A stretch of DNA of 64,000 nucleotides from assembly GCA_951406725.2 (NCBI GenBank), contig OX597827.1, positions 7,688,001 through 7,752,000 on the forward strand. The letters are read 5' to 3'. Shown in pieces: positions 19,234 through 62,422 of the stretch; within the stretch, counting starts at the first letter, position 1; the number at the start of each line of letters is the position of its first letter. The position numbers and the translations under genes are program-made. The stretch comes from Octopus vulgaris. Its lineage: Eukaryota. The notes beneath the pieces are model-generated. The model did no database searches, was not told the origin of the DNA, and saw only the letters and a list, made by a program, of their open reading frames with translations.

Positions 19234-19644
19234 ATATATTAATAAAAAGAATTCCAACCTTGTCTGATTTTCACGTTTTATTTACAATCTTATAATGATA
19301 TATTATAAGATAATATATTATAATTGAATAAAATAAAATGAAATAGTAGAATGTTAAATGTTCATTCTGATTGAACTAGTACTTTCATGCATTGAAATCT
19401 GCAATCTTCGGGTTCATGTAGTAGTGTTGACAGTCATGCTTCACAATTTTTGACTGGCTCAGGAACCGGACCTAATCCTCGGGACCGTATTCTTCCACCG
19501 CGAGGAGAGTGGATAACTGTGGCAATTCTAGAGCTAATACTTTATTTTATTCAATTATAATATATTATCTTATAATATATCATTATAAGATTGTAAATAA
19601 AATGTGAAAATCAGACAAGGTTGGAATTCTTTTTATTAATATAT
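19234..19644. mobile_element. Fold-back element with ~104-bp inverted arms around a hammerhead-containing spacer; probable PLE relic
   Basis: 19234-19337 is the reverse complement of 19541-19644 with about one mismatch; it begins at a (TA)n tract. Confidence 0.8.
19372..19416 (-). ncRNA. Minimal type-I hammerhead ribozyme motif (U4C core variant)
   Basis: UGAAC CCGAAGA UUGCA GAUUUCAA UGCAU GAAA GUAC UA GUUCA: 5-bp stem I, 4-bp stem II, palindromic AGUACU stem III. Confidence 0.75.
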
Positions 19645-19700
19645 TCTTCTATACACAATCACACACACCCATATATATATATATATATATATATATATAT

Positions 19701-19878
19701 ATCTGTAAAATAATATGTGACAATTATTCGGTAGCCAAAATAAAACTCTGAGTTTCGGATGCCAAGGTGTTTTATCTTGGCTACCGAATAATTGTAACAT
19801 ATTATTTTACAGATAAATTTCCTCTATTTGCATAATATTGAGGTCTCTTTCTTTTTTGTTATCTTACCATTTTTACCT
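19701..19878. mobile_element. PLE-like relic: 46-bp inverted arms with half a hammerhead in the loop
   Basis: 19701-19746 pairs with 19769-19814. The loop contains minus-strand CGAAACTCAGAGT, as in 31071-31108. The tail matches 57797-57851 in reverse complement. Flanked by (TA)n. Confidence 0.7.
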
Positions 19879-20564
19879 ATATATATATATATATATATAT
19901 ATATATATATATATAACAGAATAAAGACAAATCCAAATGTTAATTTTTTGAATGCATATATATATATATATATATATATATATATATGCATTCAAGTGAG
20001 TAAACAAATGAAAGAAAGTTATTATTTAAAACAGTTTGATACCCTCTTGCAACTTAAAGGTACTGGCATCAAGCCTATGGAACTTTAAGTTTGCACAGGG
20101 CCATATTGAACTGTTCTAAATGCTCATAAAACATGTGTTAAATGCATTTAAACTATTAGTTACAAATTTTGGCACAATGCCAGCAATTTTGAGGGAGTGG
20201 TCTAATCAATTACATCGACCCCCAGTGCCCAACTGGTTATTATATAAACTCCCAAAGAATTTAAAGACTAAGTTGACATTCACATAATTTGAACTCAGAA
20301 ATTAATGATGGACGAAATGCTGCTAAGCATATTGCCTGGTACGCTAATGGTTATGCCAGTTTGCTGCCTCTTTTAAAAATTGGCCAGCAAGCTACTACAG
20401 AAGGGGGAACCCTATATCTCTCCATTTCTGGCTGTGTGCTCTGTATCATGAAGCTAAACAACTCCTGACAAATGCAGTTAAAATATCAAGATTTGTTTTG
20501 TCTTTATCCTGTGTTATACAACTCACTTCTTTAACAATATAATCTGTCCTTGCTTTGCTAATAT

Positions 20565-20800
20565 TTATTTCTTTATTTCCCACAGGGGGCTAAACATAGA
20601 GGGGATAAACAAGGACAGACAAAGGGATTAAGTCGATTACATCGACGCCAGTGCGTAACTGGTACTTATTTTAATTGACCCTGAAAGGATGAAAGGCAAA
20701 GTCAACCTTGGCAGAATTTGAACTCAGAGCATAATGGAAAGATGAAATACTGCTAATCGTTTCGCCCGGCGTGCTAACAATTCTGCTAGCTCACTGCCTT
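20565..20800 (-). mobile_element. SINE family C
   Basis: Reverse complement of 56537-56768. Diverged copies lie near 4800-5460, 16420-16640, 20170-20370, 32900-33100 and 48820-48915. Confidence 0.85.
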
Positions 20801-20959
20801 GCTTTGCTAATATTGTTAGTACAACTAGGATATATGAATGGAATGTTCAACAGGCTCAGAGTCACAAGTTCTGGTAAAGTGTATTACATCAAAGCATATC
20901 CTTCAATAGATATATGTATATTATTTACAATTGTAGTTAGTATTGTTATTATCTAAAAC

Positions 20960-21612
20960 AATTTAATTTGGGCCCATGCAACTTGTAGTTTCAACTGTGG
21001 TTCCAGAAATTCTGAGCTGGAAACTACAGCCTAGAAGACAAGCCTCATCCTAGAAGATCTGTAGAGCTTGACAAGGACGTCCAGCCAACCCTAGTGGAAG
21101 AAAATCCCATCGTAACTGTTGAGAAACTAGCAGAAAATCTTGGATTTGGTCATTCAACCTTTCATCGACACCTACACTAGAAGAAAAACAACCATCTTTG
21201 GTTTCAAGATGAAAGGTGTTCTTCCATCAGGATAATGCTCAGCCACATACAGCGAGGATGACATTCCAAAGGCTGGAGAAGTTTGAATGGGAAACGATAC
21301 CCCACACACCATATTCATCAGACATTGCTGCACTTGATTATCATTTATTTTGCAGTCTTCAAAATGTTTTGGGCAGGAAAAATATGAATTCTGCAGATGA
21401 GGTCAGAACAGTACTGGAGGAATATTTTCTGTCACGGACAAGTGAATTTTTGAAGAAGGGGCCTTGCAAATCTATAAGATAGCTGAAAGAGCAGTGTAGA
21501 AAATGAAGAAGAGTATATTTTAGATTTTAAAAAAACCAACAACTTTGTTTATCTTAATTTTGAAAAATAAAAGAAATATGAAGAACTGCATTATTTATGG
21601 GATGACACAATA
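20960..21612 (+). mobile_element. Decayed, internally deleted mariner transposon (DD34D-type)
   Basis: FFHQDNAQPH...IPHTPYSSDIAALDYHLF matches mariner HDNARPH / HPPYSPDLAPSDYHLF. Upstream HTH remnant LEDKPHPRR...EENPIVTVEKLAENLG. TIR-like end ttatttatgggatgacacaata. Confidence 0.9.
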
Positions 21613-21624
21613 TATATATCTATA

Positions 21625-59569: not shown

Positions 59570-59902
59570 GATTTCGGAGACTCCCTTCAGTCACGAATAA
59601 CCATGGGATTGCACCTAGAAAGTTACCCTTCGAGGCACAAGTCCAGGCAAGGTTGTTTATGGAAGACCAGCAGTCACCCATGCATACCAGCCTCCTCTCT
59701 CTACACCACTGATGTTATCCAAGGGAAAGGCAAAGGCCTATACAGCTTGGCACCTGTGACGTCGCAACTCATTTCTACAGATGAGTAAACTGGAGCAATG
59801 TGAAATAGAGTGTCTTGCTCAAGAACACAACACGCAGCCCAGTCTGGGATTTGAACTCACAACCTCGTGGTCATGAGTTCGACACTCTAACAACTGAGCC
59901 AT
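59570..59902 (-). mobile_element. tRNA-derived SINE with CORE-like domain
   Basis: Minus strand tggctcagttgttagagtg...gagttcaaatccc...gtgttcttgagcaagacact...cagtttactcatctgtagaaatg resembles the MIR/CORE cagtttcctcatctgtaaaatg motif. Confidence 0.75.
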
Positions 59903-60781
59903 AGCAATGAGCTATAGTGAATAGCTTTGGATTAATGGAGCTGACCAAGCTGAATTCACTTTGATACATGGGTCAAAAAAGGAGCTTCTTCATTACTGCA
60001 TAGCTTGCTAGAAATATCAGTTATATCTCCCTCAACTTATGCCTTTCCATCAACAAAAAGGAAGGATCTGGTTGATACTGTTGTCCAAAAGATATAAAAA
60101 CAAAAGTTAGATGATCATAACTAGAAGCCTTTGTATCGATAGGTTTGTTTAGTTAGGAATAATTCAGAGTTAAACAACAACTTTATCAATAGCTACAAGC
60201 TAATAAGGAAGTCACTATGTGGTTGCTAAGCCTACTGCCAATAGTAGCCAGATTTCCCTCCAATCACACCCTATCATCCTAAAAAGAAAAAAAAAAATCT
60301 AGGAAAGCACATTACTGAATAATGTAGTTCAGAGTACAATATACCTAGAAAAAGGAGGCAGGATGTTCACAGCTGGAATGCCATTGATCATAGGTCTGTT
60401 CAATCAGATCTGACCCAGACCCGAATAACAACAACAACAACAACAACAACAACAACATGATGATAAACCATTTGATGGCAGCCTACTGACTCATTAGGGT
60501 TTATGACATATTTGAAAGGACTCAGTTTCCATATTCTAAAGCAGCAAATTAATAATCAATTCCTTGATAGTTTTGATGCCTATTATTATATTCGCCCTCT
60601 TTTTTTTCTTTCTATTAGAGCATTTATTGTTCTTTGTTTCTGAATATTAGCTAGTTTGGAGTAACTATTGACTATCTCGTATATCATGTCCATGATAAGG
60701 GAATGACAAATATGGCTGGCAAATACGGTTGCTAACTATTACTAAAATGAGTATGCATCATTTCTAAAATATATACAAATA

Positions 60782-61415
60782 TACTCTCTTTACTCTTTTA
60801 CTTGTTTCAGTCATTTGACTGCGGCCATGCTGGAGCACCGCCTTTAGTCGAGCAAATCGACCCCGGGACTTATTCTTTGTAAGCCCAGTACTTATTCTAT
60901 CGGTCTCTTTTGCCGAACCACTAAGTGACGGGGACGTAAACACACCAGCATCGGTTGTCAAGCAATGCTAGGGGGACAAACACAGACACACAAACACACA
61001 CATACATATATATATATATATATATATATATATATATATTACTCTTACTCTTTTACTCTTTTACTTGTTTCAGTCATTTGACTGCGGCCATGCTGGAGCA
61101 CCACCTTTTAGTACTTATTCTATCGGTCTCTTTTTGCCGAACCGCTAGGTGACGGGGACCTAAACACACCAGCATCGGTTGTCAAGCAATGCTAGGGGGA
61201 CAGACACAGACACACAAACACACGCATACATATATATATATACATATATACGACAGGCTTCTTTCAGTTTCCGTCTACCAAATCCACTCACAAGGCATTG
61301 GTCGGCCCGGGGCTATAGCAGAAGACACTTGCCCAAGATGCCACGCAGTGGGACTGAACCCACAACCATGTGGCTGGTTAGCAAGCTACTTACCACACAG
61401 CCACTCCTGCGCCTA
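60782..61415 (-). mobile_element. SINE family A with duplicated 3' half
   Basis: 61039-61415 is a full copy with a deletion in its 3' body; 60782-61038 is a second, intact 3' half. Confidence 0.9.
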
Positions 61416-61690
61416 TACTGCTTGACTCTCAATTAAATTACTGAGGGAATGTTTAGTAGATCGTTCAGGATTATGTCTCCACAGATGAGATACAAAACCT
61501 CAGCACTTCATCAACTTAATATGCTGTCATCTTATGCACTTTCCCATGCTAAGCTAACGCTGTTCTCTTTCTCCCTTTCCCTCATTCTGCACTCTGTGAA
61601 CATTCTTTTATTTATTTATTCTTTTATTTGTTTCGGTCATTAGACTTCCGCCATGGTGGGGCACTAGCATGAAGAATTTTAATCCCAACC

Positions 61691-61826
61691 CAAATCCACT
61701 CACAAGGCATTGGTTGGCCCGGGGCTATAGCAGAAGACACTTGCCCAAGATGCCACGCAGTGGGACTGAACCCGGAACCATGTGGTTGGTTAGCAAGCTA
61801 CTTACCACACAGCCACTCCTGCGCCT
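61691..61826 (-). mobile_element. SINE family A, 5' part
   Basis: Head and 5' body only; a diverged 3' remnant lies at 61605-61680. Confidence 0.9.
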
Positions 61827-62227
61827 ATATATATAAAAAAAATAAATAAAATAATAATATATATATATATATATATATATATATATATATATATATATTT
61901 AAAATTTATAACTTTAAATTATTAATTTAAATATTTTAAATATTTTAATTTTGAATTTTATATTTTATGTATTTTTTATTAATTAATTTTATTTCTATGT
62001 ATTGGTTTATGATTTTCACTGTTTGATTTGCCTAATAGTGGTTTTATCTCTAATTTAATATAATATAATATATATATATATATATACACACATATATATA
62101 TATATATATATGTAAGTATGTATATATGTAGGTATATATATATGTATGTGTATAAATATATATATATACAGTATATACACACACACACACACACACACAT
62201 ATATATATATATATATATATATATATC

Positions 62228-62422
62228 ATTCGCCATGATAGATTGCTAACCACTACACATTCTTTATTTTCTCTCTTTGTTTCTTTCTGTGTTCCTTTCT
62301 GTGAATGAGCATAGGCTCGAAATGTTAAAGACTTTTTCACTTCCCAAGCATTATACTAATACATCTGTTTGTTGTCTACATCACCTGTCTTCGTCTTTTG
62401 TTTTTTTTGTGAATTCTCCCTA
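62228..62422 (+). mobile_element. PLE-like LTR fragment with decayed hammerhead
   Basis: cttt CTGTGAAT GAGC ATAG GCTC GAAA TG TT aaag; same family as 47972-48100; flanked by (TA)n. Confidence 0.72.

Follow-up and report, generated by a model that had tools for sequence, protein, structure and literature searches.

The window analysed here, a 64,000-nucleotide stretch of the Octopus vulgaris genome (contig OX597827.1, positions 7,688,001 to 7,752,000), carries seven minimal type-I hammerhead ribozyme motifs from Penelope-like elements (PLEs). The motifs, which are confirmed as such, are insertion stubs of five families; their location in or next to the pseudo-long terminal repeats (pLTRs) of the elements is shown for families C, B' and D, and is indicated by motifs for family A. 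The cores depart from the canonical CUGANGA through substitutions that characterize families or subfamilies, namely a C at position 4 (U4C), an A3-U8 pair and a U at position 6 (A6U). Our preferred reading, to which we assign a probability of roughly 0.65, is that PLE ribozymes with these core substitutions would cut slowly and in a dimer-dependent manner. The single stubs in the window are probably inert passengers.

The question at stake is the role of PLE hammerheads and whether cutting is needed at all (PMC4209133, PMC8557442, PMC11167929). U4 and C4 occur as sister subfamilies in the octopus genome, which also has a very young, intact element with C4, another intact one with A6U, and related elements with three pairings of positions 3 and 8. 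Such a natural set makes this question directly testable. In three families, a descriptor that demands CUGANGA overlooks about half to two thirds of the copies; in two more it overlooks nearly all of them. The result is a refinement of a known class and not a new system, with no sign of a host function.

Hammerhead motifs in the window

The initial annotation had listed seven motifs, all of which were found at the same coordinates and on the same strands. They are identified by sequence as follows.

19372..19416, minus strand: family C minimal hammerhead, core CCGAAGA (C4), stem III AGUACU, intact, predicted cut after 19377
31071..31108, minus strand: family A hammerhead, core CCGAUGA (C4), stem III ACUCAGAGU, stem II damaged, on the sense strand of a protocadherin intron
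31125..31162, plus strand: family A hammerhead, the inverted partner of the former in an arm of an inverted duplication, core CCGUUGA in this copy
42659..42856, minus strand: family B non-coding, pLTR-like element of ~190 bp flanked by (TA)n, with the hammerhead at 42758-42792, core CCGACGA, stem III ACGU
47974..48117, plus strand: family B' pLTR stub with the hammerhead at 47974-48009, A6U core CUGUGGA, also G12A
53583..53615, minus strand: family D hammerhead, core AUGAUUA (A3-U8 swap), stem III ACCGGU in the family and ACCAGU in this copy
62269..62455, plus strand: family B' pLTR stub with the hammerhead at 62294-62330, A6U, further damaged

The motifs share a layout of stem I, a 7-nt core, stem II, GAAA, a palindromic or near-palindromic stem III, UH and stem I'. 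The stem sequences differ among families and still pair, and stem III is palindromic in the families (AGUACU, ACUC[A/U]GAGU, ACGU and ACCGGU), so that the constant topology and the palindromes described before are both borne out. Type I topology is found throughout, with a stem II of 2-3 bp in families A and D. The pLTR location is seen in intact elements for C and B', next to remnants for D and next to partial open reading frames (ORFs) for A; for B it comes only from a likeness of ~70% to the B' pLTR.

With a strict descriptor the window has two CCGANGA matches, where 100 dinucleotide shuffles average 0.01; it has no CUGANGA match. A core-relaxed descriptor, devised only after the variants had been seen, gave six matches in 224 kb (the window and 80 kb of flank at either end), where 50 shuffles average 0.72 and reach 2 at most; none of the six has a canonical core. 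The match frequency is thus well above that of shuffled sequence with either descriptor. Genome-wide (2.80 Gb), the exact patterns of the five families A, B, C, B' and D have 10109, 10149, 1778, 5121 and 58 copies, respectively; reversed-pattern controls for the five gave 1, 0, 0, 0 and 0.

The claim that three relics share CCGANGA holds in that C4 occurs in three families, but it covers just four of the seven motifs: 53583 has the A3-U8 core and 47974 and 62294 have A6U. Both changes are family-wide, and neither had been recognized as a family core. Individual window copies carry further damage, in stem II (31071), as A6U (31125), as G12A (47974), as G8A and in the palindrome (62294), and in the palindrome (53583).

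Subfamilies with C or U at position 4

C4 is present in 4903 of 10109 family A copies, 6526 of 10149 family B copies and 1186 of 1778 family C copies. U4C is therefore real at the level of subfamilies, as had been argued; on the other hand, every family with C4 also has a large U4 subfamily. When trees are built without position 4, C4 copies still group together and so do U4 copies, with 1-2 changes against 6.1-8.5 for shuffled labels; in family B the two states separate with a single change (6.2 when shuffled). Positions 4 and 7 show no covariation, C4 occurring with A7, C7 and U7.

The within-group identities run in opposite directions in families C and A. Among 20 sampled family C copies, C4 copies are 98.4% identical to each other and U4 copies 91.7%, so that C4 looks derived and recent in this family. 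In family A the U4 copies are the more uniform (96.9% versus 89.1% for C4; 28 of 30 loci, two of another family being left out), which suggests a change from C4 back to U4. Switching at position 4 thus appears to have gone both ways.

Family A copies with U4 lie downstream of partial reverse transcriptase (RT)/endonuclease (EN) frames with Hydra-like motifs. Pfam found no match on the family A frames. In L082 the linker is C-x-F-x5-C, a related copy has CxCx5C, and the motifs CxxC and CxH are present. The two window copies of the family occupy arms 31033-31116 and 31117-31200 that fold as one hairpin of -105 kcal/mol, hiding both ribozymes.

C4 in intact tandem elements of family C

Five family C loci selected for tandem spacing contain units of ~4271 bp with an open RT + GIY-YIG frame of 775-777 amino acids (aa) in 7 of 7, and C4 is found in all 12 ribozymes of these five intact arrays. 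A pair of neighbouring units shows 100% identity, and among the first 100 C4 copies listed, 97 are identical; the sole U4 element fetched has an RT frame interrupted by a stop. The window copy lies in the following feature.

19211..19690, minus strand: pLTR stub 19211-19456, 99.2% identical to an intact 4271-bp Neptune-like PLE, and an inverted partial copy 19541-19690 without a ribozyme

The identity extends over 246 bp of the pLTR of the intact element. By this identity the 19372 copy is a fresh stub, and its earlier description as a decayed relic is withdrawn. On cofolding, the minimum free energy structure of its homodimer is exactly a double hammerhead (-17.0 kcal/mol versus -5.3 kcal/mol for the monomer).

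Contigs from four sequencing runs cover nearly the whole family C unit, and two of them carry C4 and wrap back after 4271 nt. The wrap fits tandem read-through and a circle equally, and contigs cannot reveal cut ends. The runs are not on record as RNA. Those with family C contigs are spliced at the protocadherin exon described below and mostly silent in its intron, a pattern that fits RNA and makes RNA the probable source.

Two further observations concern this family. Whether a copy has C4 or U4 goes closely with a C/U change in loop 2 (G000:C1:27841086-27849669 and the genome listing); this is probably a shared haplotype, and a tertiary contact is possible. Upstream of its RT-EN frame (L078:2024-4351), the intact element also has an ORF of ~430 aa, counted from the first Met, without a Pfam match (L078:753-2117; also L076, L077, L079 and L085). 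This ORF overlaps the RT-EN frame in the -1 frame at a stretch of seven U, where a programmed frameshift may take place; a frameshifted ORF1 is mentioned for some PLEs in Fig. 1 of PMC8557442. No unusual structure was found downstream of the slippery site (z -0.71), and no intron joint spans the overlap in the contigs.

Families B and B'

Family B is represented in the window by one dispersed, probably non-autonomous element. Family B', by contrast with the canonical core, is an A6U family: CYGANGA occurs in just 27 of its copies, and A6 is absent from the first 100 copies listed, in which CUGUUGA and CUGUGGA are the usual cores. One fetched element has an intact RT + GIY-YIG ORF of 1119 aa and CUGUUGA in both pLTRs; a second fetched pair with the same spacing has no long ORF. 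Besides the two stubs listed above, the window holds a third copy identified by sequence.

37347..37486, plus strand: family B' stub, 5'-truncated, with the 3' half of the ribozyme only

In a further family B' element (L142:1115-1146 and 5634-5665, minus strand) both pLTRs have the core AUGUGGA (A3, U6, G8), which breaks the 3-8 pair; no long ORF was found in this element.

Family D and the 3-8 base pair

A3-U8 is present in 49 of the 58 exact-stem copies of family D and C3-G8 in none. Many copies, including that of the window, lie downstream of Neptune-like RT/GIY-YIG remnants, of which the window retains one.

53903..54112, minus strand: remnant of the C-terminal GIY-YIG region of a family D PLE, upstream of its pLTR (tblastn E 1.6e-5 to L105; translation)

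With identities of 82-89% among the best matches, the family is old. It had first been taken as rare and dead from patterns that forced G8 and gave 1 and 2 copies, a view overturned by a DNA search (1188 candidates, 40 scored) and by an open pattern.

Thirty loci were also picked by the GIY-YIG profile alone. A downstream hammerhead was found in 14 of them (12 with U3-A8, 1 with C3-G8 and 1 with A3-U8), using a descriptor that fixes GAAA and so cannot show G12 mutants. The A3-U8 locus has a covaried stem I. The other 16 loci gave no descriptor match, and two that were inspected carry a U3-A8 motif with a stem I mismatch. The U3-A8 hammerheads of the sample form a sixth family with frames of 781 aa, which is not among the seven listed motifs. 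This abundant Neptune-like PLE (L153-L173, for example L157 and L158) has open 781-aa frames, a U3-A8 hammerhead and stem III ACAUGU.

Positions 3 and 8 of related octopus PLEs are therefore occupied by C-G, U-A and A-U, three Watson-Crick pairs. Because the 3-8 pair lies in the catalytic core (PMC3088659, PMC9901934), these three forms provide the best evidence for what appears to be selection on the active fold.

A model of slow, dimer-dependent cutting

In the proposed mechanism, carried over from the known class (PMC4209133, PMC6765202), the palindromes of two pLTRs on one tandem transcript (4271 nt apart in family C) would pair into a double hammerhead, which would cut after UH and yield unit-length RNA, probably helped by the protein of the element. 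Selection would keep the active-state 3-8 pair and the letters G5, A9 and G12-A15.1, and would tolerate rate-lowering changes at positions 4 and 6, so that slow cutting would be enough, or would even be favoured for sparing the full-length template. The non-standard core letters would likely slow cutting but not abolish it. The minimal hammerheads of PLEs are reported to cut weakly and only as multimers (PMC4209133), and a hammerhead of an Anolis PLE needs the protein of its element to cut (PMC11167929). Viroid infectivity is supported by U4C even though this change reduces activity in vitro, and A6C has a rate of <0.1 per minute (PMC3088659).

Several points weigh against this reading. In a deep mutational scan, mutants of the CUGA turn other than the C3-G8 swap had low activity (PMC9901934), and A6U and C4 cores may be nearly dead; moreover, catalytic mutants of the Anolis PLE had no effect on insertion in vitro (PMC11167929). 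Only family C cofolds to the double hammerhead, the other six window copies giving other dimers. The patterns fix GAAA, so that the conservation of G12-A14 is partly built in, and the trees, built from 77-137 columns, are weakly supported. Neither RT nor EN was present in any of the 25 family B loci examined, and no C4 copy of family A could be tied to an intact ORF among the loci fetched.

The strongest competing explanation holds that cleavage is dispensable and that the fold is kept as a dimerization or protein-binding element, with core letters that drift, become fixed when a subfamily expands and leave some families dead; family B' with its A6U core would be the likeliest dead case. The fixation of A6U in a family of 5121 copies with an intact ORF speaks for it, as do the flips of position 4 in both directions. 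So do the Anolis PLE, in which insertion in vitro is unaffected by catalytic mutations and RNA ends were not observed at the cut site (PMC11167929), and the probable RNA contigs that read through the C4 ribozyme, although contigs cannot show ends. Three Watson-Crick 3-8 pairs in the catalytic core are nevertheless hard to explain without selection on the active conformation, and every family retains G5, A9, GAAA, U16.1 and a base other than G at position 17. We regard dispensable cleavage as a serious possibility that is clearly the less probable of the two.

The reading of slow, dimer-dependent cutting can be extended, tentatively, to a natural mutational scan of the core: A3-U8, A6U and the repeated switching between U4 and C4 would all support retrotransposition, the protein rescuing the ribozyme or tuning its rate. 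If true, core variants would be a dial for the cutting of tandem precursors, and tens of thousands of ribozymes would be hidden from current descriptors.

The protocadherin locus

The initial annotation had placed several of the ribozymes in protocadherin pre-mRNA. The window contains parts of two protocadherin genes, whose relatives are octopus proteins.

1..435, minus strand: start of the large coding exon of the next protocadherin, splice acceptor at 435 (Pfam Cadherin_2)
24863..25138, minus strand: last coding exon of the protocadherin that includes 28862..29035 (77% identical to P0001)
28862..29035, minus strand: second coding exon of this protocadherin (93% identical to P0001)

The exons were recovered by Pfam and tblastn; a regular expression for cadherin motifs recovered none in the window. 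The large exon of the second gene listed lies on the minus strand at window coordinates 75536-77953, beyond the end of the window, which leaves an intron of 46.5 kb (~29036-75535). Contigs from two sequencing runs end at the splice acceptor at 435 with leftover letters; the 5' UTR (untranslated region) exon of the protocadherin with this acceptor was not located in the contigs looked at. The motif at 19372 sits 5.4 kb beyond the protocadherin stop codon. Within the intron, the sense strand carries motifs 31071, 42758 and 53583, and the antisense strand 31125, 47974 and 62294.

The three minus-strand motifs are thus inside the intron as claimed, but nothing supports a role in the protocadherin RNA. 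That they were co-opted to cut or process the pre-mRNA is suggested by their position on its sense strand; against this, the three copies stem from three separate families whose palindromes differ, and their neighbours of the same family, where there are any, are antisense. One copy is trapped in the -105 kcal/mol hairpin, and damage is seen in two. The genome-wide background is also one such copy per few hundred kb (~27,000 pattern copies in 2.8 Gb), and co-option is very improbable. Lone, damaged or hairpin-locked as they are, and with no same-family partner on the same strand of the intron, the sense copies are probably inert passengers.

A further reading would derive the variant cores from canonical CUGANGA ribozymes that decayed once inserted, either at random or at CpG sites. 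Individual window copies do show decay and C4-G5 is a CpG, but the family counts already refute this reading and its probability is negligible. Each variant recurs in thousands of copies, clusters together with linked differences in the flanks and is present in intact tandem elements, and CpG decay would remove C4 and not create it.

Relation to known hammerheads and PLEs

The motifs resemble most closely the minimal hammerheads of Cervera and de la Peña 2014 (PMC4209133), with which they share type I topology, a short stem I, a palindromic stem III and the pLTR location. Further common traits are dispersed solo copies, close inverted pairs, a U3-A8 variant and many sequence families per genome, molluscs included. 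The extra nucleotide after A9 and the G10.1-C11.1 pair of the published class are both present in B and B'; D has the G-C pair only, and A and C have the extra base only. By contrast, the published descriptor fixes CUGANGA, and neither C4, A3-U8 nor U6 is among the 56 representatives of Fig. S3, in which no cephalopod is listed. Here the CUGANGA (or UUGANAA) core gives way to C4, A3-U8 and U6 as subfamily or family states.

Judged from its title and from PMC6765202, the work of Lünse, Weinberg and Breaker 2017 on small PLE hammerhead variants shares the PLE link, a short palindromic stem III and dimer cleavage. Perreault et al. 2011 (PMC3088659) describe U4C in a viroid and U3-A8 as natural variants, position 6 as variable at a cost in rate, and a 2-bp stem II and a U10.1-U11.1 mismatch as tolerated. 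These are rare single examples, whereas the octopus variants are the consensus of families of 10^3-10^4 copies; A3-U8 and A6U are not named in the available part of that paper.

Among PLE clades (Craig et al. 2021, PMC8557442), families C, B' and D are Neptune-like, with a CX2-5CxxC linker before the C-terminal GIY-YIG. The linker is visible in the translations, and Pfam matched RVT_1 and GIY-YIG, two of the four matches being below the curated cut-off. Family A has Hydra-like EN motifs. The (TA)n targets and the tandem and inverted insertions are shared with the published elements. The clade placement is by motif and not by tree. In contrast to the octopus families, the hammerheads in that paper are termed canonical, the search being fixed on ^cuganga; standard searches would accordingly miss C4, as had been predicted.

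In the literature covered, which does not include Lünse 2017, the closest study, no paper was found on A3-U8, family-wide A6U or U4C in PLEs, and none by title or abstract on PLE hammerhead ribozymes of octopus. The available parts of PMC3376415, PMC7229834, PMC6155905, PMC11014351 and bioRxiv 2026.07.22.740005 contain nothing on these core variants. The proposal of an under-described repertoire is thus sustained for the core variants and not for the class, since minimal hammerheads with palindromic stem III and inverted pairs are published for molluscs and other animals. U4C is a known natural viroid variant, and the class, palindromes, inverted pairs and U3-A8 are in print. Apparently new is that whole families, some of them intact and recently copied, have non-standard core letters, with A6U throughout a family that includes an intact element, C4 in tandem arrays of intact units and what looks like switching in both directions at position 4.

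Rfam returned no hammerhead among the matches listed for the window (150 of 528), with only microsatellite-driven miRNA matches, and its covariance models gave none at E<=10 on the intact family C pLTR. Non-LTR retrozymes, which are tandem 150-400-bp repeats with a canonical hammerhead, were considered and rejected: no such array is present at the sites among the 150 of 155 repeat rows listed, and family B copies are dispersed monomers.

Partial sites and further motifs

Five partial motifs had also been proposed. That near 37350 is the truncated family B' copy described above. The site near 56930 is not type I: in window 56880-56960 (minus strand) GAAA precedes CUGAUGA, and relatives occur in L015 and L020. 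Near 39835 and 55085 only the GAAA half is present (GAAACAGCUGUA and GAAACGACC, respectively), with no recognizable first core and no match among the fetched loci.

The 19750 site (window 19697-19818) consists only of GAAACUCAGAGU, and its ACUCAGAGU palindrome is placed in the loop of a 50-bp inverted repeat. L003 and L009 represent a further C4 family with the core CCGAAGA, a longer stem II and stem I UGG/CCA, which has the same ACUCAGAGU palindrome as family A. In the flank at window coordinate ~115406 (minus strand), in L100, a U3-A8 candidate has a 7-bp stem I and a 10-nt palindrome.

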